Below are positions 963 through 25,898 of a stretch of DNA of 55,115 nucleotides, piece after piece. Position numbers and translations under genes: made by a program. The stretch is taken from the NCBI GenBank assembly GCA_046758465.1, contig JBHIAG010000002.1:1-55115 (forward strand). The letters run 5' to 3'. Source of the DNA: Terriglobia bacterium. Lineage in GTDB: Bacteria > Acidobacteriota > Terriglobia > Acidiferrales > 2-02-FULL-67-57. Below the pieces are notes generated by a model. That model was not told the DNA's origin. It ran no database searches and was given only the letters and a program-made list of their open reading frames with translations. Within the stretch, counting starts at the first letter, position 1; each line of letters starts with the position of its first letter.

Positions 963-1008
963 TGGCGGGGCCGACGGGACTCGAACCCGCGACCTCCTGC
1001 GTGACAGG
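963..1008 (-). repeat. distal direct repeat: 46-nt copy of the 3' part of tRNA-Asp (att-like island boundary)
   Basis: TGGCGGGGCCGACGGGACTCGAACCCGCGACCTCCTGCGTGACAGG is identical over 46/46 nt to 25822-25867. Identity stops at both ends. Confidence 0.9.
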
Positions 1009-1313
1009 AAGACTCAGAAACACTATCTTGCTGGCCCGTCTAGCTTTGTTCTGCGCGATGTAGCACGGTTTTCCACGGTATTCGGCAGTCAATGGACCCA
1101 AGTGGAGGGGTCGTATGCGCTCTCTCGGAAGTTCCCGATGTCGCACAAGTCGAGGAAGTCGCCAGATCGCGGACAGCAATGCCCTGGAACGCACAGACTT
1201 CGCTTGTGACGCACGATCCACACTTGGGGGTGCCTGGGGCACCCACGCGGTTCGCGGCGCTCACAGCGCAACTTTATTTTTCTAAAGTTTAATTCTAGCC
1301 GTGGCGCGGGACG

Positions 1314-1664
1314 ATGCCCGAAGAGGCCGTAGCCGTCCAAACCGAAGATCAGCCCGAGCCGACCCAGGCAGGCCATCCGCCGGAGTGCGGCTGCCAGTCT
1401 TGCCGGCGGGAGCGGAAGCGGCTGGCGGACGAGGAGTGGTGGGCCATGCACTCGGAGGCATGGGGCGAACTGCCCAGCCGCCGAGATGAAGCGCGGGGGC
1501 TCTTGTACATGGTCGGCAAAAACGGCGACACGGTGGACACCATCCGCGCCCTCATTGCCGTCCCGCCAAAGGTCGAGGCCGTCTTGCTGGCCTACGCTCA
1601 GACAGACCGGAATGCCCAGCGCGGGATCGAGCGGGTGGCGGAGGCGTTTGAGCGGTTGCTCTAA
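1314..1664 (+). CDS. hypothetical protein
   Basis: 116-aa ORF with protein-like composition (..ECGCQSCRRERKRLADEEWW..). Preferred over the 208-aa antisense shadow ORF. No family recognised. Confidence 0.4.
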   Translation: MPEEAVAVQTEDQPEPTQAGHPPECGCQSCRRERKRLADEEWWAMHSEAWGELPSRRDEARGLLYMVGKNGDTVDTIRALIAVPPKVEAVLLAYAQTDRNAQRGIERVAEAFERLL

Positions 1665-1713
1665 GACGGTGAGAAGCGTACCATCGAACAGATAGCAAAT
1701 TAGAAGGTTCAGC

Positions 1714-2016
1714 ATGAAACCCGTGAACGTTGGGCGTGAGCCAGACGATCCTGTAGAGCATGCCCTGTGGCAGTTTGCTAGCCTTGCGAACCGAAACGCC
1801 CTGCACGTATACGATTGGGACAGGTTTTACGGGTTTATCGCCCTAGCGCACGAGAACAAGAAAAGCTGGGATCGTGATGATGTTCGTAAGCTGCTGCGCA
1901 AGTACCAATTCAACGAGGATTTTGTCCAGGAGCTCGGCGATGCCTACTGGCACGGACTATGTGCCTTGGAGAAGCGCAGAAGGATAGAATTCGGGAACAG
2001 AGAGCCAGTTGGATAA
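1714..2016 (+). CDS. hypothetical protein
   Basis: 100-aa ORF in a visibly AT-richer patch. No family recognised. Confidence 0.45.
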   Translation: MKPVNVGREPDDPVEHALWQFASLANRNALHVYDWDRFYGFIALAHENKKSWDRDDVRKLLRKYQFNEDFVQELGDAYWHGLCALEKRRRIEFGNREPVG

Positions 2017-2106
2017 CGAAATTACCTGCCCCGCAGTCTAGCTTCAATCCCCTCCGCCACCTCCCGCAGCTGAGCCAGCCGGTCCCTGAGACAAGAATAA
2101 GCTGAT

Positions 2107-2490
2107 ATGCTCCTGAGCATGGAGAAGGCAAGCGAGGGATGGGGCTCGTACTGGGAGCAGCGTAGGGTTCATTACTGGGTCGTGCTCGGGGTACGAACAC
2201 TCTGCGGCCAAGTCCACAAAGATACGAGTGATTTCAGAGTCCTCTCTGCCGCCGAAATAAGACGTGCCTATGAGCTAGACCCGTCAGGGAGCGGACTTTC
2301 CGGAAGTCTGTGTAAGGCCTGCTATGGGCTGACGGACCTCGAAGGTGAACATCAGCTCATCGAGTCGGGTTCTAGGGAGTGGGGTTGTAGCTGCGGGGTC
2401 ACGTTCAAACCTGGCGACTATATCCCCGAGGTCTATGAGGAGCACCGACAGGAGGTTGAGCGAAGAAGGAGTGCCCGTGGTGGAGCCTGA
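2107..2490 (+). CDS. hypothetical Cys-containing protein
   Basis: 127-aa ORF (possible start at the ATG at 2119) with CKAC and CSC motifs. No family recognised. Confidence 0.4.
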   Translation: MLLSMEKASEGWGSYWEQRRVHYWVVLGVRTLCGQVHKDTSDFRVLSAAEIRRAYELDPSGSGLSGSLCKACYGLTDLEGEHQLIESGSREWGCSCGVTFKPGDYIPEVYEEHRQEVERRRSARGGA

Positions 2491-2616
2491 GGTTCAGCAC
2501 CCTCCCCCCTCCACCTTGGCGATCTTCCGCCAGATGCGCTCCAGGCGCAGGGCGCGGCGGCTGGCAGCGGGGGACAGCGACGGGGTTGACATCACACGGC
2601 CCATCTGGGGAGCAGC

Positions 2617-2655
2617 CTACTCCGTGAAGTTCATGCGGCGCAGCAGGTCCTGGAA
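2617..2655 (-). repeat. relic ORF-tail module (..RFQDLLRRMNFTE-stop), copy without promoter
   Basis: rc reads TTCCAGGACCTGCTGCGCCGCATGAACTTCACGGAGTAG and aligns with the copies at 4608, 9051, 12389, 12851, 13839, 16271 and 18839. Confidence 0.6.
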
Positions 2656-2680
2656 GCGGAGGTCGGAACCCAGCGGTAGC

Positions 2681-3349
2681 TCATCGGTTCGCCATCACGC
2701 AGGTGACTTCCCGCCCAAGCTGACGCCGCTCTGTTCGAATGTTGCAGAAGCCCGCACGACGCACTAGTGCTTGAACTTCTTCAGCCTCCGTTTCCGTGAA
2801 GCCCGGCGCTACCATGAATTTTCGGGATGGGTGCTTCATCCGAAGACACAGAAACAGAAGGCCCCCTTCGTCCAGTACCCGGCTGACTTCCCTGAAATCG
2901 TTCTCGGGGCTTGTCCAGTGGTGGAACGTATTCACGGTACATATTTTGGTGAACCGCCCGTCCTCGTAGGGCAAACTCGAGACCGTGCCCTGTCTGAGTT
3001 CGACTCGGCCTGTCTTGATGAACTCTCGATTGCGCCTCGACGCCTGCTTCACCATCAGTGCAGAAACGTCGATACCAGCGACAAATCCGTTGGTAGCTCG
3101 CTTCTCCAACATGTGGATCAAGGTGCCGGGGCCAAACCCAATTTCAAGCACGCGGTCATCGGGCTGAACGTTGAGCAACTCAACCGTCAGCCGGTTCATG
3201 TATGCGTTCTTGGCGGCCATAAGGTGGCCAACGGCCCACCCCAGGACCCCGACCGGGTGCCCAAACTGCCGGGTCCATGTGGATCGCTTGCAGGCTCCGG
3301 GAGCACCGGTTTCAGGCGACATGGGCTTTTCGCGTGTGGTCGTGTTCAT
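2681..3349 (-). CDS. class I SAM-dependent methyltransferase
   Basis: VLEIGFGPGTLIHML glycine-rich SAM motif. Start moved to the ATG at 3349, because the TTG start in the track is the -35 hexamer of the promoter cassette. Confidence 0.8.
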   Translation of the reverse strand: MNTTTREKPMSPETGAPGACKRSTWTRQFGHPVGVLGWAVGHLMAAKNAYMNRLTVELLNVQPDDRVLEIGFGPGTLIHMLEKRATNGFVAGIDVSALMVKQASRRNREFIKTGRVELRQGTVSSLPYEDGRFTKICTVNTFHHWTSPENDFREVSRVLDEGGLLFLCLRMKHPSRKFMVAPGFTETEAEEVQALVRRAGFCNIRTERRQLGREVTCVMANR

Positions 3350-3356
3350 TGAGGCC

Positions 3357-3385
3357 ATCCTAAGCCGCACACGCACCCAAGTCAA
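3357..3385 (-). promoter_or_regulatory. repeated sigma70-type promoter cassette (TTGACT-N17-TAGGAT)
   Basis: rc: GCGTTGACT TGGGTGCGTGTGCGGCT TAGGATGG. The -10 ends 7 nt before the ATG at 3349. A short GAGTAGG relic of the tail module lies 10 nt upstream. Confidence 0.6.
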
Positions 3386-3425
3386 CGCGCAGAGCCTACT
3401 CGCCTGCGGCGCTGGCGTAGTGGGC

Positions 3426-4538
3426 TCAACCCCAGATACTTCGAGCGGTTTCCACTACGAGCCGGAGTTTGTGTGTCTGGTCTTCCACTGAAATGCGGTT
3501 GCCAAGAATCGATGTAGCGAAGCCACACTGCGGGCTGAGCCCTAATCGTTCCAGCGGCACATACTGGCTCGCCTCGCCAATACGCTCGATGAGTTCCTCA
3601 CGTGTCTCCAACCGCGATGTCTTCGTGGTCACTAGGCCGAGCACCACGATCTTATCGTCCGGCACGTGCCGCAGTGGCTCAAAGGTGCCCGAACGAGCAT
3701 CATCGTATTCGAGCAGGAATCGCTGCGCCTTGACTTTTTGGAAGAGCGCCGGTGCGATCGGTTCGTAGCTGCCTTCCACGAGCCATCGACTGCCCTGGTT
3801 GCCTCGGCAGAGGTGAAAGCCAATGGTGACCTGCGGCGGGGCTGCCGCTATGACGGCATTGTCGAGTTCAATGGCGCGTTCGAGCCACCACTTTACACTT
3901 CCTGCCTGTTGCTCATAGAAGGCGCGTGTACGGGGATCAATCAACAAGGCATAGTGCGGAGCGTCAATTTGGACGTAGGTTGTCCCCAGGCGCACGAGTT
4001 CCTCTACTTCTTCCCGCAGGATTTCGACCACATCGGTCAAGAAGGAGTCGAGGGTCGGATAGACATGGCCCGAGCGCTCGCGCGACCAGAAATTCGCCCA
4101 GAGGCTCGGACTGGGCAGCGTAATCTTTGGGATGCGGCGAGTCCGCCCACGTAAGTAGGTGAACTCCTCAGCCGAGATGTGGCGCCGCCGCCGCAGCTTA
4201 CCCACCACGCCTAGGTTCGATGGGCGTTCGACATCTCGGTTCCCTACTTGCGGGTCTCCACGCCACTCACCCCATAGGAACGCGTCCAGCGTGTACTCGC
4301 CAAAACCCTCGACCGCCGCTGTCATCTGGCTCTGGAACGACTGGCGGCGCATCTCGCCGTCGGTGATAATGTCGAGTCCGGCTTCCTCTTGCAGCGCCAC
4401 CGCTTGATCCACTGCGCGGTCTTCGATCCTTTTGAACTCCGCTGGCGTCAGCCCACCCACGGCGGGTTGCTTTTGAGCGGCGAGCAATTCCGGCGGGCGA
4501 AGGAGGCTGCCCACTACATCGGCCCGTGCGGTGATCAT
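3426..4538 (-). CDS. cobalamin-independent methionine synthase (MetE C-terminal domain)-like protein
   Basis: ..VVGSLLRPPELL..IITDGEMRRQSF..FHLCRGN..LEYDD..LSPQCGFA.. pattern of the Meth_synt_2/UROD-like family. Start re-picked downstream of the promoter cassette. Confidence 0.75.
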   Translation of the reverse strand: MITARADVVGSLLRPPELLAAQKQPAVGGLTPAEFKRIEDRAVDQAVALQEEAGLDIITDGEMRRQSFQSQMTAAVEGFGEYTLDAFLWGEWRGDPQVGNRDVERPSNLGVVGKLRRRRHISAEEFTYLRGRTRRIPKITLPSPSLWANFWSRERSGHVYPTLDSFLTDVVEILREEVEELVRLGTTYVQIDAPHYALLIDPRTRAFYEQQAGSVKWWLERAIELDNAVIAAAPPQVTIGFHLCRGNQGSRWLVEGSYEPIAPALFQKVKAQRFLLEYDDARSGTFEPLRHVPDDKIVVLGLVTTKTSRLETREELIERIGEASQYVPLERLGLSPQCGFATSILGNRISVEDQTHKLRLVVETARSIWG

Positions 4539-4569
4539 GGTTGGCCAGAGAACCCGACGGTTAGCGGGC

Positions 4570-4598
4570 ATCCTAGACCGCGCCTCCCGACAAGTCAA
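4570..4598 (-). promoter_or_regulatory. repeated sigma70-type promoter cassette
   Basis: rc: GCGTTGACT TGTCGGGAGGCGCGGTC TAGGATG, with hexamers spaced 17 nt. Confidence 0.6.
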
Positions 4599-4607
4599 CG
4601 CGCAAGC

Positions 4608-4649
4608 TTACTCCGGGAAGTTCTTGCAGCGGAGGTGGGAGTGGAAGCG
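4608..4649 (-). repeat. relic ORF-tail module (..LRCKNFPE-stop), 9 nt upstream of the promoter cassette
   Basis: rc: ..CGCTTCCACTCCCACCTCCGCTGCAAGAACTTCCCGGAGTAA. Confidence 0.55.
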
Positions 4650-4672
4650 AGGTTGCCGCAATGGGTCGCTCG

Positions 4673-5248
4673 TCACCGGGAGGGTAGCCCAAGGTACCGA
4701 GGAACCTGCTTGCAGTAACGTGCGTAATCCTCGCCATGCACCTTACGCAGATGTTCCTCTTCCGTTAGAACCATCATATGAGCGATAGCTGCGAATAGGA
4801 TCACCCATCCCAGGGCGTACCATGAAGGGCGAAGCACAGCCAATCCGATTATTATCGGAACACTTCCGACGATCTGGGGATTCCTGGTCACACGATAGAA
4901 GCCGGTCTGTCTCAGCACATTCACTTTTCGGCCCAAGGAGCGATCCAGCCCAAGCCCAGCCATTGCCGTGACCAAAAGAACGAGTCCGACGCCTATCAAA
5001 GTCACGCCACTAATCCTGAGGAGCGGATCGACACGCGGGTCGTGGAACCAGAACCTAGGCCAGCTGCACGGATTGTAGAGGCATGGAAAGCTGAAATACA
5101 AACTCCAGATCAGAAACTGGAGAGAAGAAGAAAACAGCGTCAGCCGACCTTTTTGTCGGTAGTCACGCCGGACGAAGATCCGAAAGATCACAAAGGCGCT
5201 GGCAAACAGTAGGAAAACATAAATGAGGTAGACGGTGGGGATCGTCAT
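4673..5248 (-). CDS. isoprenylcysteine carboxyl / phospholipid methyltransferase-family membrane protein
   Basis: Multi-TM protein with C-terminal ..YRVTRNPQIVG..MMVLTEEEHLRKVHGEDYARYCKQVPRYL, typical of the ICMT/PEMT family. Start set at the ATG at 5248, downstream of a promoter relic and a GGAAGG SD. Confidence 0.75.
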   Translation of the reverse strand: MTIPTVYLIYVFLLFASAFVIFRIFVRRDYRQKGRLTLFSSSLQFLIWSLYFSFPCLYNPCSWPRFWFHDPRVDPLLRISGVTLIGVGLVLLVTAMAGLGLDRSLGRKVNVLRQTGFYRVTRNPQIVGSVPIIIGLAVLRPSWYALGWVILFAAIAHMMVLTEEEHLRKVHGEDYARYCKQVPRYLGLPSR

Positions 5249-5283
5249 GTAACCTTCCGACTGCAACTCCCCCCTTGGCAGCC

Positions 5284-5312
5284 ATCCTAGGCCCCACCCG
5301 CAGGCAAGCGCT
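5284..5312 (-). promoter_or_regulatory. promoter-cassette relic (spacer and -10 kept, -35 replaced)
   Basis: rc: AGCGCT TGCCTGCGGGTGGGGCC TAGGATGG. A second degenerate copy with TTGACT lies at 5372-5377. Confidence 0.4.
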
Positions 5313-5522
5313 GTGACCGCCGTCACATGTGAGTTGTGAGGAATGCTGGGGTTTCGCCCCGCCTACAGCCAAGTCAACGCGGGGTGTACGAGAACCAACT
5401 CTTTCCGGGTGGTCTAATTCCTGGACTCACGGCTTCGTAGAAGCAGGCAGTTGTAAGGGGATGTGCGGAAGGGTTTTTGGGCGGTTTCTGAAGGGCGCGC
5501 TGGGCGGTGTTCTAGGCCTGCG

Positions 5523-5551
5523 TTAACTTGCCTGCGGGCGGGGCGTAGGAT
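5523..5551 (+). promoter_or_regulatory. repeated sigma70-type promoter cassette
   Basis: GCGTTAACT TGCCTGCGGGCGGGGCG TAGGATGG. Confidence 0.55.
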
Positions 5552-5631
5552 GGCTGCAACAACGGGAGAGTTCCTTCCTATGATTGGCCGTGCCATCGCA
5601 AAGCACCGCGCACAAGACCTAACACAAGAAA

Positions 5632-5928
5632 TTGGAGAGCAAGAATGACTGGCGAGGACAGTTAAATGGCACCACGGCGCTGATGGTTGCGGCATCGAAC
5701 GGGCACGCGGAGGTCGTTCGCACCTTGCTTGAGGCTGGCGCGGATGTCGATGCAAGAACTGAAGGCGGGATGCCGGCTCCGCTGAATGTACGTGGGATGA
5801 CAGCTCTGCTCGGTGCGGCAGGTGGGGGTCACACCGATGTCGTTCAAGCTCTACTCGATGGGGGTGCCGAGGACAACCTTGGCGCCACAATCATCTTTTT
5901 CCGGACTGACTCCATGTCGACGATGTAA
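5632..5928 (+). CDS. ankyrin-repeat protein (short, possibly a fragment)
   Basis: ..GTTALMVAASNGHAEVVRTLLEAGADVDART..GMTALLGAAGGGHTDVVQALLDGGA.. gives two ankyrin repeats. It has a TTG start and an out-of-frame upstream ORF, so it may be a remnant. Confidence 0.5.
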   Translation: MESKNDWRGQLNGTTALMVAASNGHAEVVRTLLEAGADVDARTEGGMPAPLNVRGMTALLGAAGGGHTDVVQALLDGGAEDNLGATIIFFRTDSMSTM

Positions 5929-6054
5929 GCGGCACTTGATTGCGGTAGACTAGGAGAGCAAGTCGTGGGTCCGATTACCCTGGATGGGAGTGGCCCGACC
6001 TAGCAGACCAGCCGGGTCAAGTTCACCGGCTGCCTCAACCGAGCGGAGTGTCTG

Positions 6055-6948
6055 ATGAAGCTGGCAGGAATCTATCCGATTGTTCCAACCCCCTTTGATG
6101 AATCAGGAAGAATCGATCCGGAAAGTATCCAGCGCCTGACTGCGTTCATGGCCGGCTGCGGCGTGCAGGGCCTTGCCATCCTGGGTGTGATGGGCGAGGC
6201 GCAGAAACTGAACGACGCCGAGCGGGTCGAAGTCATCAAGGCATTCCGTACCGCCCTTCCGGAAAACTTGGCTTTGGTCGTCGGGGTCCGTGCCGCTGGA
6301 ACCGATCCCGCCGTGGACCAGGCGCGGACGGCGCAGGACTTGGGCGCCAATGCCTTGCTGGTGGGCCCGCCGCCCATCCAGAAGGACGGCGCCATTTTTA
6401 CTTACTACCAGCGCGTCGCCCAGGCGGTCGACGTACCTCTTGTGATCCATGACTACCCGGCATCAACAGGTATCCTGATGTCTCCAGAACTGATCGCCCG
6501 GTTGCATCGCGAGGTGGAGGGGATTCCCTACATCAAGCTGGAAGACCCGCCCACGGGGCCGAAGATGGACAGGGTGCGCGAGCTGGCGGGTGACCCCCTG
6601 GGCGTGTTCGGGGCCCTGGGCGGAATGTACGCGTTCGAAGAGCTGGACCGGGGCGCGCTCGGCATCATGACCGGCTTCGCCTATCCCGAACTTCTGGTTG
6701 ACCTCTACCAGCGCTACTCGAAGGGTGATGTCGCCGGCGCGGCGACGCTCTTCTATGACATGCTGCCTCTCATCCGCTTTGAGTTTCAGCCGGGGATGGG
6801 GATTTCGCTCCGCAAGCACATCCTGGTGCAGCGGGGCATCATTCGAACCGCCACCATCCGTCACCCGGGCGCGCAGGCCGACGCCAGGACCTTGGAACAC
6901 CTCGAGCGAATCCTGGACCACATGAGGCAGCGCGGCTACAAAGTCTAG
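6055..6948 (+). CDS. dihydrodipicolinate synthase/N-acetylneuraminate lyase-family aldolase
   Basis: MKLAGIYPIVPTPFDESGRID..GVQGLAILGVMGE.. is the class I aldolase (DapA-like) pattern. Confidence 0.8.
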   Translation: MKLAGIYPIVPTPFDESGRIDPESIQRLTAFMAGCGVQGLAILGVMGEAQKLNDAERVEVIKAFRTALPENLALVVGVRAAGTDPAVDQARTAQDLGANALLVGPPPIQKDGAIFTYYQRVAQAVDVPLVIHDYPASTGILMSPELIARLHREVEGIPYIKLEDPPTGPKMDRVRELAGDPLGVFGALGGMYAFEELDRGALGIMTGFAYPELLVDLYQRYSKGDVAGAATLFYDMLPLIRFEFQPGMGISLRKHILVQRGIIRTATIRHPGAQADARTLEHLERILDHMRQRGYKV

Positions 6949-6972
6949 CGATTCCCGCGGAGGCAACCGCTC

Positions 6973-7836
6973 ATGCGTCTGGCATCCATCCGTACTCACA
7001 AGGGCGAGACCGCTGCCGTGGTTCTGGATGATGGAGCGTTGCCTGTCGAGCGTCTGGCCGCTGCCCGGCAGAAACCGCTGCCGGCTACCCTGATGGAGCT
7101 GATCGCCGGTGGCCATCTCCCGGCTGTGGCTTCGGTGATGGCAGAGGACCCGCTGCCGGAACTAATTCCTCACGACAAGGTGGCCTACGGCCCTCCACTC
7201 CAACGGCCGGGGAAGATCTGGGGCATCGGCCTCAACTACCGTGAGCACGCTCGCGATCTCGATGTGAGTATGCCGACCCATCCGGCCAGCTTCATGAAAC
7301 CCGCCACCGCCATCATCGGATTCGGAGAAGCCATCTGCCTGCCCGCCGAGTCCCAGCGGGTGACGGCAGAAGCGGAGCTCGGCGTCATCATTGGCCGTCG
7401 TTGCCGCAACGCTAGCGGAGAAGAAGCGCGTCAGGCCATCTTCGGTTTCACCTGTGTGCTCGACATGACCGCCGAAGACATCCTGCGGCAGAATCCGCGC
7501 TTCCTGACCCGGGCCAAGAGCTTCGACACCTTTTTCAGTTTCGGGCCCGTTGTCCTGACCGCCGATGAAGTGTCCGACCTCCGCCAGCTGGTGGTGCGCA
7601 CCATCGTCAACGAGGAAGTTCGCGCGGAGAACACCGTGTCCAACATGACGTTCGATCCCCTCGAATTGATACGGTTTCACTCGCAGGGGATGACGCTGGA
7701 ACCGGGCGACATCATCTCCACCGGCACGCCGGGGGCCTGGCCGGTCCAGCCGGGCGATGTAGTGCGCTGCGAGATTTCGGGCTTCCCTCACTTGGAGAAT
7801 CGAGTTCAAGCGCCGGCGCGGGAGGGACAGAGCTAA
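6973..7836 (+). CDS. fumarylacetoacetate hydrolase (FAH)-family protein
   Basis: ..KIWGIGLNYREHA..AELGVIIG..TRAKSFDTF..GDIISTGTPG.. is a FAH-fold signature. Confidence 0.85.
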   Translation: MRLASIRTHKGETAAVVLDDGALPVERLAAARQKPLPATLMELIAGGHLPAVASVMAEDPLPELIPHDKVAYGPPLQRPGKIWGIGLNYREHARDLDVSMPTHPASFMKPATAIIGFGEAICLPAESQRVTAEAELGVIIGRRCRNASGEEARQAIFGFTCVLDMTAEDILRQNPRFLTRAKSFDTFFSFGPVVLTADEVSDLRQLVVRTIVNEEVRAENTVSNMTFDPLELIRFHSQGMTLEPGDIISTGTPGAWPVQPGDVVRCEISGFPHLENRVQAPAREGQS

Positions 7837-7905
7837 GAAGCAACAGGACGGGACGTTGCCTCGGCTTCGTCCCCCTACACTCGGCGTTCAGCAGAGGAGG
7901 ACACC

Positions 7906-8697
7906 ATGGACTTGGGTATTCGTGGCCGGGTTGCACTCATTGGCGCCTCGGGAAGGGGCCTGGGGCTGGCGACAGCGCAGCGCCTGGCGATGGAGGGCTG
8001 CGTCGTCGCTATCTGTGACAAGGAAGCGAGCGTGCTGAAACCCGCGCTGAAAAGCGTTCAAGCCGCTGGCAGCAACGTGAAAGCCAAAGCCTATCCGGTG
8101 GACTTGACCAAAACAGAAGAGATCGAGCAGTTGGTGGCTTCGGTCAAGAGCGATCTGGGGCCGGTCTCGATCTTGGTCACAAACTCCGGCGGGCCGCCGC
8201 CGGGCCCCTTCGATGCGGCGGCCGATGAGAAGTGGGTCTTTGCCTACTCCCTCACTTTTCTCAGCGCCGTCCGTCTCATCCGCGCCGTACTGCCCGACAT
8301 GAAGGCGCAGAAGTGGGGCCGCATCATCAACTTCACTTCACGGTCGCTCAAGGAGCCCATCCCCAACCTCATCATCTCCAATGCCGTGCGTCTGGCCGTG
8401 GGCGGGATGGCGAAGACGCTGGCCGGCGAGGTGGCGCAGTTCGGCATCACCGTCAACAACGTGTGTCCCGGCCCGACCACGACCGATCGGGCGATTGAGC
8501 TGGCGGGGGCGCGGGCGACCAAGAAAGGCATTAGCGTCGAGGAAGAACTCGCGCAGACCTCCAAGACAATACCGTTGGGGCGGCTGGCCCGGCCGGAAGA
8601 GCAGGCAGCCGCCGTCGCCTTCCTGGCGTCGGAGCCGGCCGGTTATATCACCGGCATTTCCCTCCTTGTAGACGGAGGGGCAGTGAAGGCGCTCTAG
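7906..8697 (+). CDS. short-chain dehydrogenase/reductase (SDR)
   Basis: N-terminal Gly-rich Rossmann motif (ALIGASGRGLG), ..NNVCPGPT.., ~260 aa. Confidence 0.8.
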   Translation: MDLGIRGRVALIGASGRGLGLATAQRLAMEGCVVAICDKEASVLKPALKSVQAAGSNVKAKAYPVDLTKTEEIEQLVASVKSDLGPVSILVTNSGGPPPGPFDAAADEKWVFAYSLTFLSAVRLIRAVLPDMKAQKWGRIINFTSRSLKEPIPNLIISNAVRLAVGGMAKTLAGEVAQFGITVNNVCPGPTTTDRAIELAGARATKKGISVEEELAQTSKTIPLGRLARPEEQAAAVAFLASEPAGYITGISLLVDGGAVKAL

Positions 8698-8871
8698 GAA
8701 AGGAAAGACCACCTCTCCCGCGCCCGGAAAATGCGTCAATTTCGGCCTTTTTCAGCCTGCTTTTGAATTCCTGGTCTCGTCTGTATCTCCTTCAGGTGCA
8801 AGGGGTTAATGCGATGCCACAGGAGTTCGTTTTGCAGTTTTCCTTTTTTCGGATGAGCGAGCCTTGGCCTG

Positions 8872-9027
8872 CTCTTGCAGACCTGTGGGGGTGTGGTCCC
8901 ACCCCCCGAGGCGGGCGCGGATGTGAATGCGAAAGACAAGGATGGCAAGACAGCCTTGATGATGGCGACAAGGACGGGTCACACGACCGTCGTTCAACTG
9001 CTGAAGAAGGCCGGAGCGAAGGAATAA
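8872..9027 (+). pseudogene. ankyrin-repeat gene fragment (C-terminal repeat only)
   Basis: The frame ending at TAA 9025-9027 reads ..[39 protein letters not shown]-stop. There is no start or upstream repeats. Confidence 0.5.
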
Positions 9028-9050
9028 CAACTGCCCCACCCCGCGTCCCC

Positions 9051-9089
9051 TTCCAATCCCTCCTCCTCCGCCTGAACTTCCCGGAGTAA
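9051..9089 (+). repeat. relic ORF-tail module (..FQSLLLRLNFPE-stop), 10 nt upstream of the promoter cassette
   Basis: TTCCAATCCCTCCTCCTCCGCCTGAACTTCCCGGAGTAA. Confidence 0.6.
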
Positions 9090-9099
9090 CCCCTTCGTG

Positions 9100-9128
9100 T
9101 TGACTTGCCTGCGGGTAGGACTTAGAGT
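9100..9128 (+). promoter_or_regulatory. repeated sigma70-type promoter cassette
   Basis: GTGTTGACT TGCCTGCGGGTAGGACT TAGAGT, about 30 nt upstream of the ATG at 9158. Confidence 0.6.
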
Positions 9129-9157
9129 GAACCAAGTTAGAAAACTAGAGGCGGGCC

Positions 9158-9678: not shown

Positions 9679-9711
9679 AATACGTCCGGCCAACATGGAA
9701 GGGAGAGCTCG

Positions 9712-18075: not shown

Positions 18076-18155
18076 CACCGCCCACCGACGTTCTCTCCAA
18101 CTCACGCTGAAAACCATCGAGCGGAAGATTGCCACGGTAGACTTGAAAGTTCTCG

Positions 18156-18184
18156 TTGACACCCCCGAAGCGCAGGATTAGGGT
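18156..18184 (+). promoter_or_regulatory. sigma70-type promoter related to the cassette
   Basis: CGTTGACA CCCCCGAAGCGCAGGAT TAGGGT. An AAGGGAGG SD precedes the ATG at 18228. Confidence 0.5.
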
Positions 18185-18227
18185 AGCAACCTCGAAATTC
18201 CCCACACTTCAGAAAGGGAGGACAACC

Positions 18228-18689
18228 ATGCGTCGAATTTTGCTGGTGTTTGCAAGTGTTGCAGTTTTGAGTCTGACGCTCATTGCAGCGCCGTCCCAGA
18301 TAGCCGATGAAGTTATCGCTATAACGAAAGCACAGTGGGCGGCAGAGATGCAGAACGATATTGCAGCGGCGATGAAGAACGTGGCTGACGATTACACAGA
18401 GTTCAATCCCGACTATCCCACTAGGCTCGATGGCAAGGCATTGAATGTGCGGCTTGCCGAAGCACAGGCAAGTGGCAGTGGGCGTCTGGTGGCAGCGGAG
18501 ATGGCCAACGCAAAGGTGCAGGTATATGACAATGTGGCCATCCTCACCTACAACTTCATCGGTTCCACAAGAGATAAAGACGGCAACATCGAAGCTGTAC
18601 GTGCAAAGTCAACCCGTGTGTACGTGAAAAAAGGCGGGCAGTGGTGGCTTGTACACGCCAACTTTGCTCCGGTTGACGTAGAGAATTAG
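18228..18689 (+). CDS. secreted NTF2-like (DUF4440/SnoaL-like) protein
   Basis: Signal peptide plus ..DDYTEFNP..VQVYDNVAILTY..KSTRVYVKKGGQWWLVHANFAP.., an NTF2-fold pattern. Confidence 0.6.
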   Translation: MRRILLVFASVAVLSLTLIAAPSQIADEVIAITKAQWAAEMQNDIAAAMKNVADDYTEFNPDYPTRLDGKALNVRLAEAQASGSGRLVAAEMANAKVQVYDNVAILTYNFIGSTRDKDGNIEAVRAKSTRVYVKKGGQWWLVHANFAPVDVEN

Positions 18690-18838
18690 GTGCAAGTGCT
18701 GACCGAAGCTTACGAGCAGGTGGAAGCGGGACAGTTGCTGAAGCTGCGGGACAAGGCCACTCGTTGCGTCAAGAGCTTCATTTCGCGCTATCGGCCCGAT
18801 CTGAGCTACATCCCGGCAGGCCAATAGACGGGCTGTAT

Positions 18839-18869
18839 CAAGGGGAAGTTCAGGCGGAGTGACGGAGTG
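18839..18869 (-). repeat. degenerate relic ORF-tail module in minus orientation
   Basis: rc: CACTCCGTCACTCCGCCTGAACTTCCCCTTG, followed (rc of ~18790-18830) by a decayed promoter part ATTGGCCTGCCGGGATGTAGCT. Confidence 0.4.
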
Positions 18870-19254: not shown

Positions 19255-19767
19255 CTAAATTTTCCCCGTCAAGCCTGGCTGCCAATCTTTCAGCATCCCG
19301 CGCTGCCGCAGGAGTTTGGTGTATGCGTCCGGGTCTTTTTCCGCCAGTTCGGCCAAGTCAGCAAGCTCCCGTTCTGGCTCTTTCTTCTCGGGCGGTTTTT
19401 CTGCCCCTTGGGGCGGCTGCTCTTCCGTCTTGCCTAGAGCGAGCTTGCCTTTGTCGCGCAATTCGCAGAAGGCCGCCTTAAGGTTTTGAGGATTGACCTG
19501 CCAGCCACGCTCCGCCAGGTACTCGCCGATAGTCCTAGCGTTTTTCAAGTCGTCCTCACGCGACACTGCGCGCAGTTCCGGGTGTGCCCGCGCCAAGCCA
19601 GTTGCACAGGCGCTTTCGAAGCTCCAAGCCGCCATGCTTTCGGAAAACTGAAACCGTTGTTTGATGCTGCCCAAGTTGTCCTCGAAAATCTCCTCCAACA
19701 CCGTCTCAAGCGCGCCAAGCGGGTTGCGGTTGAACTCCTCTAAGAAAGCGTCCTTGTTCTGAGCCAC
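19255..19767 (-). CDS. hypothetical protein (last gene of the orphan operon)
   Basis: 170-aa ORF with an acidic helical N-half and a Lys/Glu/Pro-rich tail. It is tightly packed behind the large ORF. No family recognised. Confidence 0.5.
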   Translation of the reverse strand: MAQNKDAFLEEFNRNPLGALETVLEEIFEDNLGSIKQRFQFSESMAAWSFESACATGLARAHPELRAVSREDDLKNARTIGEYLAERGWQVNPQNLKAAFCELRDKGKLALGKTEEQPPQGAEKPPEKKEPERELADLAELAEKDPDAYTKLLRQRGMLKDWQPGLTGKI

Positions 19768-19776
19768 GATGTTCTC

Positions 19777-22772
19777 CTAGTCTTCCGGCCCCACAATCTT
19801 CACGCCCTCAGCGCGTAGCATGACCTTGACGATTTGGGTGATCTTGGCCCGCTGGCTTTGGTACAGCTTGCGGAGAACCTTGCGGCCTTTGGGCGACTTG
19901 ACCGCTGAGGGCATTTTTCTCATCAACCCTCGTGCCAGTTGGCCGTGCAGCCGGCCCCAGGCGCGCTCGAACTTTTCCTGAGTTTCTGGCGTCGTACCAC
20001 CCGCGACTCGAATCTGCGGAGCGCGCACTCGCTCAATACCAGCCGCACGCAAGAACTCTTCTTCGGGGGAAAGCTCTGCTGAAAGCACGCGGGAGCCGAC
20101 TGCGGCAGGCGCGGGAATGTCCGTACCCGAGATGAAGCGGCGCGGCTCCTTCGGCTTACCCGTGAACGGATCAATGCGCACCTCTCCCGTCTTAGAGAGG
20201 AACGGAATGTCACCGAAGCCACTCGCCCGCTCCTCGGGCGAAAGTAACTGTTCAAACACACCGAGCACGGTGCGCTGGGGAAAATAGCTGGAGATGAACT
20301 CCTCGAATCGCTTCCGCAAACTCCGCGCCGAGAGCCGTCCGTCTAGGTGGTCTGTCACCGCGCCCCATAGTTTTCCCACCAGTCCGGGCGACGACAAGAA
20401 AGTGACACTTGAATTCACAAGTTCCTTCCGCGCCTTCTCGCTATCCCCCCGTAACAGGGCTGCGAAAAACAGACCCTCGACCAAGAAAAGAATGCCCCCG
20501 AGCCTCTTACGACGCACCACTTTGCCGTCTAGGTCTTTAAACTGGTACTCGAAGCGGTCAAAGTCCACCTCGTCATAGATGGTTTCGTTGACAAAGTGGA
20601 CAAAGCCTGCGCCTTCCAAGTTCCGCACGGCGAACGCCACGGCATCATCAGCGGTGGCCCTGCCAGCCACAACCTTGCGGTAGAAACTCGGCGCGGCGGG
20701 TGTGAACTCAGCAAGAAAGCGCAACCATTGAAGCCGAATTTCGCAAAAGGTGACAAAAGCAAAATCGTAAAAGGGTGTCCGGTCAAACGCTCGATAGAAG
20801 CTGGCAGGGGCAGGGTGAATGATGCTTTCTGCCCTTCCTTCAATGCTTGTGTTACCACGTTCGGGTCTTTGAGCAATTCCGCCGCCCGCCGCCGCACAAA
20901 GTTTTGCCGGGCAACTCCGTGCAGGCCGCGACTTACTGCTTCCCGATGCGCTTGCGCCAGAATGGTTGATTTGAACGCGAAAGCTCGCGCCGTGCCATCT
21001 ACGAGCGTCTTCAACTTCAGCCCCGTGAAGGCGGCAATATCGGCACGCTCGCCGAAGAATGGTTTGAAGCGCAGCGAGAGGGCGGGGTCGGTTCCTAGTA
21101 CACGCTCCAACTCTTCTTTAGGGAATGCCCGCCAGTAGCGGATAGCATCAAAGGTTCCCTGCACACGCTTTCCAGGCTGGCCGGTGCGGACGAAATCGAG
21201 CACGTCGCTAACAATATCGCGCTGGCCCTTCTCCGCCAGCGTGCCGATGTCGCTGGGTAAGTCGGCGAGAAACGAAAACCAGGGGAAAATCGCACGACGC
21301 CAAAAATCAATCCCGAAGATGCGAGCGGCGCGGCCAAGGTTCCTGCTTTTGAGTGCTTCGACTCCTTCGCGGAATAGAGTCTTTGCTGGCCCAGATTCCA
21401 GCGCAGGCAACCCTTCAAGGCTGACGTTTGCGCGCTTCATCAGGTTGACTAACGTATCAACGGCGGCTCGCGCTTCCGCCCGCGCCTGGGCACTCACAGG
21501 CTCTTGAAAAGCGCGGCCAGTGAGTCCGAAAGTGCGGGCGAAGCGTACCCGCTGACGACTGGCAAGACTCATAAGCGAAACCAGTGCTTGTGCCTGCTCG
21601 ACCGTCGCAAGGTTCTCGGCCTTGCCGATTGTATTGGTGGCAAATTCCTTGATTTGCTCGCTGAGGATGACTGTGGCCTTGTTCAGCGTGCGGACCCGCT
21701 GCGGGGAAACGGTGAGCGACGTGCGGCGAGCAACCTGCTCCTCGGCCAACTGGCGGGCGCGCTCGCCCGCGATTCCGCGCAGTTGCCGTTCAAGAATGTC
21801 GGTCTCAACCTCGCGCCCTAGTTGGCGCAGAGGCACCTTGGCCGTCGCTGCGACCGTTCCGGTTTCCGCAATGGCCGGGGCTTGCTCCAAAGTGATTCGC
21901 CCAATGTCATCTAGCTCGTTGATGACGGCACGGACGGATTCTCCGAGCTGGCTTCCCTCCTGTTGCAGCGCATCTTTAATCGGCTTCGCCCGCAAGATTG
22001 CCTGCAATTCCCGGCGTGCTGTGGCCGCCAAAAGCTCGTCGCCGGGTTCAACTCCTTTCATGCGCGTGGTGAGCCGAGTCCACGCGTTTGCGATAGCCTC
22101 GGGTACACCGCTCATCCTAAGAGCTGCGACACCACCAGGGAAAAGCGCGGAAATTCCCGCTAGCGTGCCCGCTTCGCGCAAGCGTTCGGTCGGCTGGCCA
22201 GCTACTTCTCTGCGCGGAACCACCGCGCCGAACTTGGCCCCGACCGCACCGGATCGAATTGTTTCCTCAACCAGCCGTGGGAGTGAGATGCCACGCTCGG
22301 CTAGTGCGCCAGCTAAACGACTGCCAACGGTTTTTTCAAAGACCTTCTTCCCAGCAGCGCGCGCCACCGGACTCGCCACGCCGCCGACAGGTATTCCCAT
22401 CGCAAGCAAGTCGAGGCTGGCGGCTTTCAGCGCCTCTTCCTCCTCGGGAGTATGTTTGGGAATGCCAAAGCGCCTGCCAGTGTGCCGCTCCACGTAAAGT
22501 TTTTCATGCTCGTTGGGTTCTTCCCCTGGCCCGAGCCTGCGGGCCATCGGGGGCCACCCAAAAGCAATTTTCGTCGCCTTGAGTTGACGCCGGGGGATGT
22601 CGAGGATGTCACGGACAACATCTACAACCGCTTCTCCAACCGCCCCAGGAATTGCGCCGGCGACAGACATCTCCCGCATTTCGACCTCGGGCGGTGGTGG
22701 AGGGGGCGGGACCGCGAGTTCGTCACGGATGCGACGCCCGGCGCGTTCGATGGCAGCTTGAAGGTCGCCCAT
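19777..22772 (-). CDS. large (~1000-aa) hypothetical protein whose reading frame switches by -1 near 20769-20775
   Basis: The 747-aa ORF (20529-22772) looks protein-like only up to ..PLPASIERLTGHPF and then becomes compositional junk. The -1 frame reads ..PFYDFAFVTFCEIRLQWLRFLAEF.. into the 315-aa ORF (19777-20724). No family recognised. Confidence 0.55.
20769..20775 (-). other. CCCUUUU slippery heptamer at the frame switch of the large ORF
   Basis: rc(20769-20775)=C CCT TTT in the upstream (zero) frame (caC CCT TTT acg). A -1 slip gives CCC TTT TAC.., exactly the downstream frame. Confidence 0.45.
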
Positions 22773-22784
22773 TGCTATGGATTC

Positions 22785-23009
22785 CTATCTGCTTAGAGAA
22801 AAATCAATAAGCTTCTCAAGATTGGTGTTGAGTCTGTCGGTCTTCATGGCGCGGAGAATCCGCCGAAGGTTTTTCTTCACGGCTGGGTCTGTTGTGGCAT
22901 CCCTGCGTGCAAGCAGAGTGGCTTGTTTTTTGTCGCCACCACCTTGCACCCAGTATGCTCCGGCCAACGCGCTGATCTCATCCTGCCTCACTGGCTGAAG
23001 GTTACTCAT
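22785..23009 (-). CDS. hypothetical 74-aa protein, paralogous to the C-terminus of the upstream gene
   Basis: QDEISALAGAYWVQGGGDKKQATLLARRDATTDPAVKKNLRRILRAMKTDRLNTNLEKLIDF aligns with QGEVNALAGAYLVQAGNDVRQAMQLALKEARTDPHVRRNLPLILRAVKAGKLDTALEDLLRF of the 286-aa protein. Confidence 0.55.
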   Translation of the reverse strand: MSNLQPVRQDEISALAGAYWVQGGGDKKQATLLARRDATTDPAVKKNLRRILRAMKTDRLNTNLEKLIDFSLSR

Positions 23010-23012
23010 GTG

Positions 23013-23873
23013 TCACTCCTGATTTTGGTCTTGCCTGCCTGCTTCGAGAAATCGGAGCAGGTCTTCCAAAGCAGTGTCAAGTTTGCCAGCCTTGACAGCA
23101 CGAAGAATCAGCGGAAGATTTCTCCGCACGTGTGGGTCTGTTCTGGCCTCTTTGAGTGCGAGCTGCATCGCCTGGCGTACATCGTTGCCAGCTTGAACTA
23201 GGTATGCGCCGGCCAGCGCATTGACCTCACCCTGCCGCCCTGCCTGAGCCGCAGCGCGCCTTTCGGCGGGCGATAGCGGCTCAAAGTTCGAAATGCGCTT
23301 GATCTCCCCGCCAGTCGCCCTGTCGAGGAAAACCAAGTCACGCCCGCTCATGCGGGTGAAATATTTTTGTTCATCGCCCGCGCGGAAGAAATCTAAAACC
23401 TCCCGCGCCTCGTCAGTCCGCCCCTGCTGGAAAAGTTTGGCTGCCAAGCCCTGAAATGACGTGGGCTGTTTTGGCGGTTTCGGGCGTCCAAGCAGTCTCG
23501 TCCGCTCTTCCTCCGCAGCCACTTCCCGCTCGCGCAAACCGAACGCGCGTTCCTCGCTCCGTCGCTGGGCCTCTTGCTGACGGCGAATCAATTGCTGCTG
23601 TTGGACGGCACCGAAGCCACGCGCAAAGCCCGCTGCCACGCCACCTTCAGGGCCAGAAAGTGAGCCGGCGATGGCTGTGGGCAGATTAGTCAAAAAAGCG
23701 TGCATGAAAGTGGGCCGCGTCTGAAGCTCAACTTGCGGCACCATGACGGGCATGGTGCCGAGTTCACCATCCGCACCGCCAAGAGGAATCTCCCCGACTT
23801 GCTGTACGCCGACCTGCTTATAGCCTGTTGGAACCGGGCTGAAGCTGAATTCGCGTTTGAGTCCTTCTCCCAT
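23013..23873 (-). CDS. hypothetical protein with coiled-coil centre and the duplicated C-terminal domain
   Basis: Start re-picked at the ATG at 23873, 5 nt after a GGAGAGGGAG SD. Gln/Arg/Glu-rich middle. No family recognised. Confidence 0.55.
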   Translation of the reverse strand: MGEGLKREFSFSPVPTGYKQVGVQQVGEIPLGGADGELGTMPVMVPQVELQTRPTFMHAFLTNLPTAIAGSLSGPEGGVAAGFARGFGAVQQQQLIRRQQEAQRRSEERAFGLREREVAAEEERTRLLGRPKPPKQPTSFQGLAAKLFQQGRTDEAREVLDFFRAGDEQKYFTRMSGRDLVFLDRATGGEIKRISNFEPLSPAERRAAAQAGRQGEVNALAGAYLVQAGNDVRQAMQLALKEARTDPHVRRNLPLILRAVKAGKLDTALEDLLRFLEAGRQDQNQE

Positions 23874-23875
23874 GT

Positions 23876-24157
23876 CTACTCCCTCTCCTTGCAAGATATC
23901 GGTGCTGGCCTGGTCTCAACTGGCGCGCCGCCGCTGAGAGGTGGGCACGGGAATTTTTGAAATAGATACGCTTCGGCTTCACCCAGCAGTTCAGCCAGCT
24001 TTGCGCGCTCCCACTGGCTAGCCTCGGCTTGGCCGTGGACGATCTGGCTTAGACGGCTGGACGAGATGCCCGCTGCCGCCGCGATGCGCGTTTGCTTGTA
24101 CCCATTGCGCCAGAGCGCACGGTGTAGGTTTTCGAGCACTGCCCTCCCCTCCTTCAT
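23876..24157 (-). CDS. small helix-turn-helix DNA-binding protein (XRE/Cro-like)
   Basis: ..YKQTRIAAAAGISSSRLSQIVHGQ.. HTH. Start set at the ATG at 24157, because the longer ORF would include the intrinsic terminator at 24181-24208. Confidence 0.6.
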   Translation of the reverse strand: MKEGRAVLENLHRALWRNGYKQTRIAAAAGISSSRLSQIVHGQAEASQWERAKLAELLGEAEAYLFQKFPCPPLSGGAPVETRPAPISCKERE

Positions 24158-24180
24158 GGAATTTCCTTGCAGGCCACGGT

Positions 24181-24208
24181 AAAAAAAAGCCCCGCCCGAA
24201 GACGGGGC
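24181..24208 (-). terminator. rho-independent terminator
   Basis: Minus strand: GCCCCGTC-TTCG-GGCGGGGC (8-bp stem including one G-U) followed by TTTTTTTT, 52 nt after the stop of the 24260-25330 gene. Confidence 0.8.
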
Positions 24209-24259
24209 CTTCTCTCGAATCTGTAGCACTGGGATGCTACTTGGCCTACTTACTCTACA

Positions 24260-25330
24260 TCACCCCTTTCGCAATTTCGTACGCTGGCTCTTCAAAAAGC
24301 TGCTAATCCATTCTGGCTCAGGCAGATAAGCAGCCCGGCCAAGCGTCCGCTCGCCCAGGAGGATGACCAGTTCATACTCAAGGGTGTCAGTAATCCATGC
24401 TTTTGAAGCCAAGGTAATCTTCTGCGTAGGGTTGAAAACCTCAAGTGCTGGCTCCAACCAGTAGCATTGTTTCTTCCGCCCATCCAAATACTGAAGAATC
24501 TTCTGGTTCAGCTTGGAGATGTTGGACGGGGATACTTTGGCGCGGCGGGCAATCTTGCGAGAAATCCCTGGGGTGTCCTCGCCGCGCATCGCAGCCCGCA
24601 CAGAAGCGCGAGCAACCCGCTGCTGCTCTGCTGTGGGCAATCCCTCGATCCCTTCAAGCAAACCTTCTGCATCCGGCGTGGCCGCGTACCCCTCGGGAAT
24701 CTTCGTGTCAACAAGTACCTCGTCAGCCGCCACAACCCTGCCGGGCACCGGCTCGCCAGCTTCATCCTTTTCGTAGTCCTCAAGGAGATGAACTTCCCGG
24801 CTCGCCCGCTCCAATTCGAGCTTCTTCCGCTTCCAGCGGAGCCTGCGCAGATTGCTCCGCAGATATTCAGAGGGCACCTGATGATGCTTGATGAAGTCGT
24901 AGCCTTCGTACAAATCCGCGAAGTCCTCAAAGGTTTCGGGGTTAGCTGAGTTCGGGCCTGCAATTTCGCTGCCGTGCTCTTCCCAGTAAGCGTTCCGCTC
25001 CCGAAAGCTGCGATGCTTGGAGGCGAGAAAGTCTGTGTCGGCAGCCTTGAGATTCTGGGGGCCGAGGACAGTAATCAGGGCAAAGGCTTGCAGAACGGCA
25101 AGGGCAGCCACAGCAGCTTGTGGCATTGGTTTCTTACGAGCCGCTGCCAGTGCACGCTTGACGCTCGGGTTGCGCTGTTGGTGTTCTTCTACCGTGAGTG
25201 CAAAAGTCCAAGCAAAATGTGCCAGCCTTGGATTACGCTTGAAATCTTGGAAAACTTTCTCGCGCTCGCTCTTGAACACCCCAGAGGCGAGCTTGATGAG
25301 CAGGGTGGCAGTCTTGCGGGCTGAGGCCAT
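24260..25330 (-). CDS. hypothetical protein with a C-terminal sigma-70 region-4-like HTH
   Basis: 356 aa from MASARK. ..LPTAEQQRVARASVRAAMRGEDTPGISRKIARRAKVSPSNISKLNQKILQYL.. resembles a region-4/LuxR-type HTH. The upstream 93 codons of the track ORF are Arg/Pro junk overlapping the integrase relic. Confidence 0.5.
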   Translation of the reverse strand: MASARKTATLLIKLASGVFKSEREKVFQDFKRNPRLAHFAWTFALTVEEHQQRNPSVKRALAAARKKPMPQAAVAALAVLQAFALITVLGPQNLKAADTDFLASKHRSFRERNAYWEEHGSEIAGPNSANPETFEDFADLYEGYDFIKHHQVPSEYLRSNLRRLRWKRKKLELERASREVHLLEDYEKDEAGEPVPGRVVAADEVLVDTKIPEGYAATPDAEGLLEGIEGLPTAEQQRVARASVRAAMRGEDTPGISRKIARRAKVSPSNISKLNQKILQYLDGRKKQCYWLEPALEVFNPTQKITLASKAWITDTLEYELVILLGERTLGRAAYLPEPEWISSFLKSQRTKLRKG

Positions 25331-25380
25331 GCAGCCCTCCCAGTTCACAGATTTTCGGGGAGTTCCTTCAGGTGGGGTAA

Positions 25381-25797
25381 CCACCTTGCGGAATCCCCCT
25401 AAAGGGCTTCGGCCCGGAAGCCGTGGCAGCACTTCAGGAACACCGGGGGCGTTTGGGTGGCAGTCCGCAGCCCGACGCCTTGGTGTTTCCCAACAAGAAG
25501 GGCGGCTCGCTTGACGCCCACAACTTGCTCTGGCGCGTTCTCTACTTAGCTTGCGACGGGGCTGGTGTACCACGTGTCTCATGGCACGCGCTGCGCCATA
25601 CCCACGCAACCCTGCTAAACGTGCAGGGCGAGTCGGTCAGAACGATCCAGGCACAGCTTCGCCACTCGTCAGCCCGCGTTGCTTTGGAAACGTACACGCA
25701 GGTCGTTCCTGAGCAGCAGCGCAGCGCGGTGGAGAGGCTGGAACGCCTGGTATTTGGACCCAAATTCAGGAGATTGAGGGTCGGAAGGCTCCGCTAA
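25381..25797 (+). pseudogene. tyrosine recombinase (phage-type integrase), C-terminal relic only
   Basis: ..EAVAALQEHRGRLGG..LVFPNKKGGSLDAHNL..VSWHALRHTHATLLNVQGESVRTIQAQLRHSSARVALETYTQV.. has the HxxR, H and Tyr boxes. The frame is closed by TAA at 25378-25380, so the N-terminal core-binding domain and first catalytic Arg are missing. Confidence 0.8.
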
Positions 25798-25821
25798 TTC
25801 AATGATTCTACGGAAGATAGC

Positions 25822-25898
25822 TGGCGGGGCCGACGGGACTCGAACCCGCGACCTCCTGCGTGACAGGCAGGCGTTCTAACCAACTGAACTACAGCCCC
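25822..25898 (-). tRNA. tRNA-Asp (anticodon GUC), CCA encoded
   Basis: rc: GGGGCTG TA GTTCAGTTGGTTAGAAC G CCTGC CTGTCAC GCAGG AGGTC GCGGG TTCGAGT CCCGT CGGCCCC G CCA. The 3' 46 nt (25822-25867) are the proximal direct repeat. Confidence 0.95.

Follow-up and report, generated by a model that had tools for sequence, protein, structure and literature searches.

The 55,115-nt contig JBHIAG010000002.1 of a Terriglobia bacterium (assembly GCA_046758465.1), analysed here over its whole length and hereafter called the window, carries at 963-25867 what is very probably an integrative genomic island of a tRNA-Asp gene, now fossil. Site-specific integration at this tRNA gene had been proposed in an initial annotation made from the sequence alone. 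The proposal is supported by the regenerated tRNA gene, a 3' fragment of it in direct orientation, a recombinase remnant, arms bearing a common motif, a lower GC content at third codon positions (GC3) and a gene content unlike that of L082, the sole representative genome with the same tRNA pair (99% nucleotide identity) and a syntenic right flank (loci from other genomes are designated by L numbers throughout). The island itself is of an ordinary kind, a further fossil instance of what textbooks describe; the organisation of its cargo, an ordered array of gene cassettes, matched no described system. The island ends and their immediate surroundings are made up of the following features:

1-954, minus strand: partial insertion sequence (IS) of the IS3 family, with orfA at 609-887 (HTH_Tnp_1) and an orfB fragment at 205-795 (HTH_21), both from Pfam
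963-1008, minus strand: attR core, an orphan copy of the 3' 46 nt of tRNA-Asp, with the CCA end at 963 and the anticodon-loop end at 1008
1009-1104, plus strand: conserved attR-proximal arm (P' arm), with the motif GGACCCAAGT at 1094-1103
25408-25805, plus strand: tyrosine-integrase stub, the C-terminal ~30% with the H-x-x-R and Tyr region, containing the attL arm motif at 25756-25765
25822-25898, minus strand: intact tRNA-Asp(GTC) (ARAGORN; Rfam, 73.6 bits), of which the 3' 46 nt (25822-25867) are the attL core
25909-25983, minus strand: tRNA-Val(TAC) (ARAGORN, Rfam), upstream partner of tRNA-Asp, at which the conserved chromosomal flank starts

The two core copies are identical at 46 of 46 nt and lie in direct orientation, while the chance expectation of an exact 46-mer pair in 55 kb is ~6e-19. 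Identity ends sharply on both sides, the left copy being bordered by GAGAAAAG and AAGACT and the right copy by GATAGC and CAGGCG. The repeat extends from the anticodon loop of tRNA-Asp through the encoded CCA; identity blocks that reach from this loop to the 3' end mark one of the classical sublocations of integrases in tRNA genes. ARAGORN and Rfam agree that the right copy is the 3' part of an intact tRNA-Asp, which is located 10 nt downstream of tRNA-Val. ARAGORN calls no tRNA at the left copy, which runs into non-tRNA sequence at 1008, as a displaced 3' fragment does. The abrupt 46-nt duplication, the identity of the right copy and the orphan status of the left copy, all three put forward in the initial annotation, are hereby confirmed. 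RNA families other than tRNAs had no Rfam match.

Reads bearing on these junctions come from the metagenome runs X1-X3, which derive from hydrothermal-vent samples and contain 80-94% of the words of the window. The orphan junction is not an assembly artefact, because unitigs from all three runs cover both of its sides and independent assemblies share the orphan-plus-arm junction. A chimera would require a mis-join at a 46-mer that is common to the tRNA-Asp genes of many community members. Such an error is suggested by the unitig depth of the 46-mer, which reaches 240-510x compared to 6-10x for its flanks, and by the nature of the contig, which is metagenomic and ends in repeats on both sides. 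However, the 46-mer followed by the non-tRNA sequence from 1009 onwards is an orphan in itself and is found at island depth in the unitigs of the three runs; the same junction with a homologous arm occurs in three independent assemblies, and depth is even along 1-26 kb. A chimeric origin is therefore highly improbable.

The IS3-family element, which is cut by the contig start, sits just outside the island, and the rve portion of its transposase would lie beyond the contig start. Its presence, noted in the initial annotation, is borne out by the Pfam matches of orfA and orfB, but the distance to the repeat is 8 nt instead of the 10 given there: the IS ends at 954, as defined by an IS-free junction that starts at 955 in runs X1 and X3, where unitigs join ...CTCCGTCGGGACGTGTTCACCGCGCTCCAC directly to 955. 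The insertion is polymorphic in the population. An exact-protein look-up of the IS orfA yielded no match. The proximity of this element lends some weight to the idea that the orphan arose without site-specific integration, through decay of a duplicate tRNA gene or through a rearrangement mediated by the IS. We give this idea very little credence, as the fragment stops exactly at the anticodon loop, like those in L146 and L226, is 100% identical to the live gene and is flanked by an arm that is conserved in other elements, while the orphan is still there in the part of the population from which the IS is missing.

The arm at 1009-1104 (~95 nt) is 81-86% identical to sequence beside orphan tRNA-Asp pieces in L096 and L226, the latter with a core that matches at 45 of 45 positions, and is also kept beside a tRNA-Pro-like piece in L228, L225 and L227. 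Conserved attR arms in these relatives terminate in tandem GGACCCAAGT units. On the tRNA side, a GGACCCAAAT unit is found ~58 nt from the core, and this unit is tandem in L146, L147 and run X2. The window has just two exact copies of GGACCCAA(A/G)T, one in either arm, at 1094 and 25756. This layout is as expected of the arm-type integrase-binding sites of an attP, and its sequence pattern suggests that the integrase would bind there.

A tyrosine-recombinase relic that ends 24 nt from the tRNA had been described before; both the relic and the distance stand, but it is a 5'-truncated stub encoding the final 30% of the protein, and it is not frameshifted along its length. The open reading frame (ORF) at 25423-25797 matches Phage_integrase (PF00589) over positions 91-169 only and ends 24 nt from tRNA-Asp, and database homologues of the stub are 57-72% identical, with homologues at 64-69% among them. 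The full-length L145 integrase (402 amino acids) aligns with 25408-25764 at 61% identity through residues 284-402 only, which means that the N-terminal domains and the region of the first catalytic Arg (LLLTGxRIGE in homologues) are missing; upstream of the alignment, nothing recognisable in comparison to the L145 integrase is found. Because 70% of the integrase is gone, including these parts, the island cannot move by itself. The extreme tail of the stub (WTQIQE...) sits in a different frame. This frameshift results from the loss of one 10-nt GGACCCAAAT unit, of which the window has one while run X2 and the relatives have two, and in run X2 an extra TGGACCCAAA after 25754 restores the frame (GPKWTQIQE). 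Within 25754-25765, the arm motif doubles as coding sequence for GPKWTQ.

Stubs of the same integrase family recur at related sites. In L147, a stub (72% amino acid identity) abuts tRNA-Asp/tRNA-Val among otherwise unrelated neighbours, and the stub of L146 lies directly against a 45-nt orphan of tRNA-Asp that shares the anticodon-loop boundary. Members of a sister clade (~45% identity) abut tRNA-Thr(CGT) in 12 loci.

From these features, a conventional route of acquisition can be proposed. The ~24.8-kb island would have entered a Terriglobia ('Ca. Acidiferrales'-like) chromosome by tyrosine-integrase site-specific recombination between an element-borne attP and the tRNA-Asp(GTC) gene, within the 46-bp identity block that extends from the anticodon loop to the CCA. 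The copy supplied by the element would complete the tRNA at attL, and the displaced original 3' end would be left as the orphan at attR. The GGACCCAA(A/G)T repeats in the arms on both sides would be the arm-type binding sites of the integrase. The assignment of the host agrees with the flanking genes, the proteins of which are 60-83% identical to those of metagenome-assembled genomes of Terriglobia / 'Ca. Acidiferrales'.

The same outline is known from the genomic islands catalogued with Islander, in which a tRNA gene is split and restored, the regenerated tRNA and the displaced 3' fragment mark the ends and the integrase gene lies beside the tRNA (PMC4383910). Of the features by which such islands are recognised, the intact target tRNA, the direct-repeat 3' fragment and the motif-bearing arms are present here. 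The integrase is represented by its C-terminal 30% only; its location and family agree with such an island, but it is non-functional. Unlike the Islander islands, the present one thus has a stub for an integrase, and its cargo is an ordered, promoter-bearing array instead of a phage, an integrative and conjugative element or a loose collection of genes.

The composition of the island is shifted relative to that of the core. The island has a GC content of 58.9%, compared to 61.7% for the core; in tetranucleotide usage, island windows correlate with the core at 0.84-0.93 and core windows at 0.91-0.96, and mean gene GC3 is 0.68 versus 0.76 (Mann-Whitney p = 5e-5). Within the island, GC3 is patchy. 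Downstream of the tRNA-Asp gene of L082, a PilZ protein, a 251-amino-acid protein and a glyoxalase are encoded, and none of the genes of the island; the L082 contig ends 2.2 kb from the tRNA.

Two thirds of the island are occupied by the cargo array (2.6-18.8 kb), which consists of ~12 cassettes with 10 near-identical promoter copies and 7 boxes, arranged in two divergent arms that start from ~5.45 kb:

2617-5380, minus strand: minus-strand array arm (Pfam; promoter and box scans)
2617-2658, minus strand: box
2681-3385, minus strand: S-adenosylmethionine (SAM) methyltransferase, promoter at 3357-3388
3426-4598, minus strand: MetE-like gene, promoter at 4570-4601
4608-4647, minus strand: box
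4673-5326, minus strand: PEMT-like gene, promoter at ~5349-5380
5515-18850, plus strand: plus-strand array arm (Pfam; repeats)
5520, 9097, 9647, 11533, 13881, 15394 and 16317, plus strand: promoter starts of the plus arm
9050-9089, 12388-12427, 12854-12893, 13835-13874 and 16270-16309, plus strand: boxes of the plus arm
5632-5928, plus strand: ankyrin-repeat gene fragment, following the promoter at 5520
6055-8697, plus strand: DHDPS, FAA-hydrolase and SDR genes (Pfam)
plus arm: cytochrome c, FAD oxidoreductase, LiaF-like and STAS genes (Pfam)
12907-~13767, inverted within the plus arm: CN hydrolase of the nitrilase family (Pfam)
13940-15385, plus strand: beta-lactamase-family gene with an amber stop at 14303
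plus arm: amidohydrolase and DUF4440 genes (Pfam)
18690-18828, plus arm: gene fragment, the C-terminal piece (...RPDLSYIPAGQ-stop) of a 251-amino-acid cassette gene

In the initial annotation this content was called unrelated cargo. The genes are indeed unrelated to one another, as they belong to different Pfam families, but their arrangement is not random: they form an ordered array of promoter-bearing cassettes that is common to other genomes. The promoter-like unit reads (CCTTC)GCGTTGACTTG-N-TAGGAT with a 17-nt spacer and is of the sigma-70 type, with seven copies on the plus and three on the minus strand. The copies are positioned 35-50 nt before the start of different genes, and similarity between them stops just past the -10 element; they are predicted to be active promoters. 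The box (22-60 nt) has a stop codon at its end and encodes ...RFQ(D/S)LLxR(M/L)NFPE. As its copies differ by synonymous changes, the box is to be read as a relic of coding sequence, namely of the C-terminal end of TPR/Ser-Thr-kinase genes, and Ser/Thr-kinase-TPR and TPR proteins of other phyla genuinely end in this 22-nt string. At its most complete, a cassette comprises one GCGTTGACTTG-N-TAGGAT promoter, one or a few genes and a terminal box (...RFQ(D/S)LLRRMNFPE-stop). Some cassettes are without a canonical promoter or box. An 11-nt stretch of the att core (25848-25858, GACCTCCTGCG) resembles GACCTGCTGCG of box variants in L087 and L107 at 10 of 11 positions, which is probably due to chance. 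Other array loci (L105, L112) likewise encode ankyrin proteins. The 251-amino-acid cassette gene that is represented by a fragment in the window is intact beside tRNA-Asp in L082 (725-1480), and this cassette is also found after boxes in L090, L100 and L111.

Boxes and promoters are concentrated in particular genomes. The loci of JACZYA01 contain 38 boxes and 28 promoters in 127 kb and those of JALLOH01 contain 30 and 25, while in 2.6 Mb of other acidobacterial loci no box was found with one mismatch allowed. Several of the arrays are located within a few kb of tRNA genes and of tyrosine integrases of different families (L118 at tRNA-Asp, L120, L121, L089, L114). In a number of loci (L095, L121, L131, L136, L139), a third recurrent module, the hairpin gtgccaaaaccatgtggttttggcac, takes the place of the promoter after the box.

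The distribution of these arrays bears on a composite origin, in which the locus would be a hotspot shaped by successive integrations, deletions and cassette insertions, with the orphan, the stub and most of the cargo stemming from different events. This account, which is compatible with the island reading, is a possible but not a probable one. It draws on relatives that carry differently truncated stubs at the same tRNA, on L118, where a different integrase family occupies tRNA-Asp with a box and promoter nearby, on the array of L082 that is without an integrase, on the patchy GC3 across the island and on cassettes that are common to unrelated contexts. Conversely, no further att copy, even a partial one, was found inside the island, both arms bear the same family-specific motif, and the attR arm of L096, which is of the same kind, has a box and promoter on its interior side.

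A number of observations count against the interpretation of 963-25867 as a single tRNA-Asp island. The same-family relics in L146 and L147 are truncated as well, so that the stub may predate the cargo by a wide margin. Island and core differ modestly in composition, and the DHDPS, FAA-hydrolase and SDR genes are core-like in GC3. In L082, an array immediately adjoins tRNA-Asp with neither integrase nor arm motif present; the array may therefore belong to the locus instead of to a single element. Neither an empty site nor a circular junction was observed in relatives or in the k = 31 unitigs, with a contig that starts inside an IS, and Logan unitigs of k = 31 cannot bridge a 46-nt repeat. Owing to the contig start inside the IS, only 30 nt of the distal chromosomal flank are available. 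These 30 nt, taken from the IS-free junction, are absent from JGI metagenomes and cannot be aligned to L082, L118 or L147. A relative with an alignable distal flank was not found, and among 80 relatives of the flanking thioesterase none has the tRNA pair adjacent to it, for which reason they are of no use as empty sites.

The cassettes themselves are shared between genomes. The nucleotide identity of the LiaF-like cassette (11528-12431) to L111 6075-6958 is 87% and that of the STAS cassette (12385-12859) to L126 is 83%, while the tRNA genes of the window are only 86% identical to those of L118, which belongs to the same assembly as L111 (JACZYA01). The neighbours of shared cassettes differ between genomes. 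Homology begins at the promoter or just past the preceding box and ends 3-4 nt beyond the stop codon of the cassette's own box. Of the internal ends of homology blocks between genomes, 41 out of 134 fall within 60 nt of a module, compared to 5.5% expected. Furthermore, unitigs of runs X1-X3 at similar depth contain other box-promoter junctions at 9078, 12405-12425, 15393 and 16316, from which it follows that the same community holds further arrays outside the contig; these are probably located in the same genome. An exact-protein look-up of the amidohydrolase matched only one Logan contig of 1.8 kb.

These patterns suggest that recombination at the short shared modules has led to gain, loss and exchange of cassettes between islands. 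We tentatively propose that the box/promoter arrays may represent a previously undescribed acidobacterial gene-cassette system. Two results argue against such a system. Firstly, a cassette-specific recombinase was not found: a hidden Markov model search for tyrosine recombinases retrieved tRNA-site integrases only, and Pfam searches of the large ORFs adjacent to arrays gave peptidases, outer-membrane proteins and similar families, with no cassette recombinase among them. Secondly, apparent joints in the reads that had been considered as products of cassette excision proved to be other box-promoter junctions elsewhere in the metagenome and not circles.

Of the systems with which the arrays can be compared, integrons and putative mobile promoters come closest. 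Integrons are similar in having mostly single-gene, unrelated units with a short conserved separator, a tyrosine recombinase nearby and units that are common to genomes in differing neighbourhoods (PMC4889954). In contrast to integrons, the separator here forms no hairpin, most cassettes have a promoter of their own and both strands are used. In place of the IntI/attI/Pc arrangement, the arrays have tRNA-site integrases from two or more families in their vicinity, which differ between loci. Integron attC sites were considered as an explanation of the box-promoter units and rejected, as the units fold as single-stranded DNA no better than shuffled sequences (z = +0.3 to +2.2); inspection of the units revealed no R''/R' cores (GTTRRRY/RYYYAAC pair).

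Repetitive extragenic palindromic sequences and bacterial interspersed mosaic elements (REP/BIME) are mosaic intergenic repeats in which short modules are combined in varying order. Likewise, the box, the promoter and, in some loci, the hairpin are variably combined between genes. Unlike REP/BIME, the box and promoter are non-palindromic, the box recognisably descends from a coding C-terminus and the modules are confined to island-like arrays instead of being scattered over the genome. Putative mobile promoters also show highly similar copies before non-homologous genes, within and across genomes (PMC3575422). The present promoters differ from these in that 10 copies are found within 14 kb of one island and several are coupled to the box that marks cassette ends.

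Outside the array, the interior of the island comprises two further segments:

1105-2616, no strand assigned: island segment with ORFs of no assigned function (no Pfam, PHROG or PADLOC matches)
19255-24229, minus strand: mobile-element backbone remnant, with a helix-turn-helix (HTH) regulator at 23876-24229 (HTH_3), a 293-amino-acid ORF at 23013-23894, a split gene for a ~1000-amino-acid protein at 19753-22772 and a 170-amino-acid ORF at 19255-19767

The ~1000-amino-acid gene is split by a frameshift near 20700-20775, and its homologues P0017-P0021 (958-1019 amino acids) map to it in two frames. The protein is conserved in Acidobacteria at 53-56% identity, and in L229 its homologue sits among SSB and HTH_17 genes, a context that resembles a mobile element. 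Searches of the split gene, the HTH regulator and the 293- and 170-amino-acid ORFs against Pfam, PHROG, PADLOC and the sequences of the PDB assigned no family, except for HTH_3 in the regulator.

The island is decaying, as is evident from the truncated integrase, the frameshifted ~1000-amino-acid gene, a polymorphic amber stop, a 173-bp indel and the neighbouring IS. The amber codon TAG at 14303-14305 in the beta-lactamase-family gene reads TGG in runs X1 and X3, which makes the amber-bearing gene a young, segregating pseudogene. The indel polymorphism covers 1104-1276, with a joint from 1103 to 1277 in runs X2 and X3, and the deletion variant begins exactly where the conserved attR arm ends.

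Further tRNA-linked features are found in the core. The tRNA-SeC gene at 33084-33184 adjoins a large ORF (33211-35670), and its linkage to the thioesterase region is maintained in L030, L042 and L079. The right end of the contig (55053-55115) lies inside another tRNA-like 3' half that is 66% similar to the att region, so that the contig has a repeat at either end. This right end may mark the start of a second variable region linked to a tRNA.

At the level of the integrase, the analysis defines a family of soil and vent Acidobacteria by its core, its arms and a target switch between tRNA-Asp, tRNA-Thr and tRNA-Pro. A cassette system of the kind considered here would achieve an integron-like outcome with a double-stranded junction that is without a hairpin and derives from the 3' ends of TPR/kinase genes, and most cassettes would bring their own promoter. 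If the units are exchanged as cassettes, they would constitute a second modular route of gene capture, independent of attC, in which captured genes are pre-wired for expression. Acidobacteria are an abundant phylum that is genetically almost unexplored. Since the cassettes contain metabolic and envelope genes (hydrolases, methyltransferases, redox and beta-lactamase-family genes), such a system would bear on the adaptation of accessory metabolism in these organisms.

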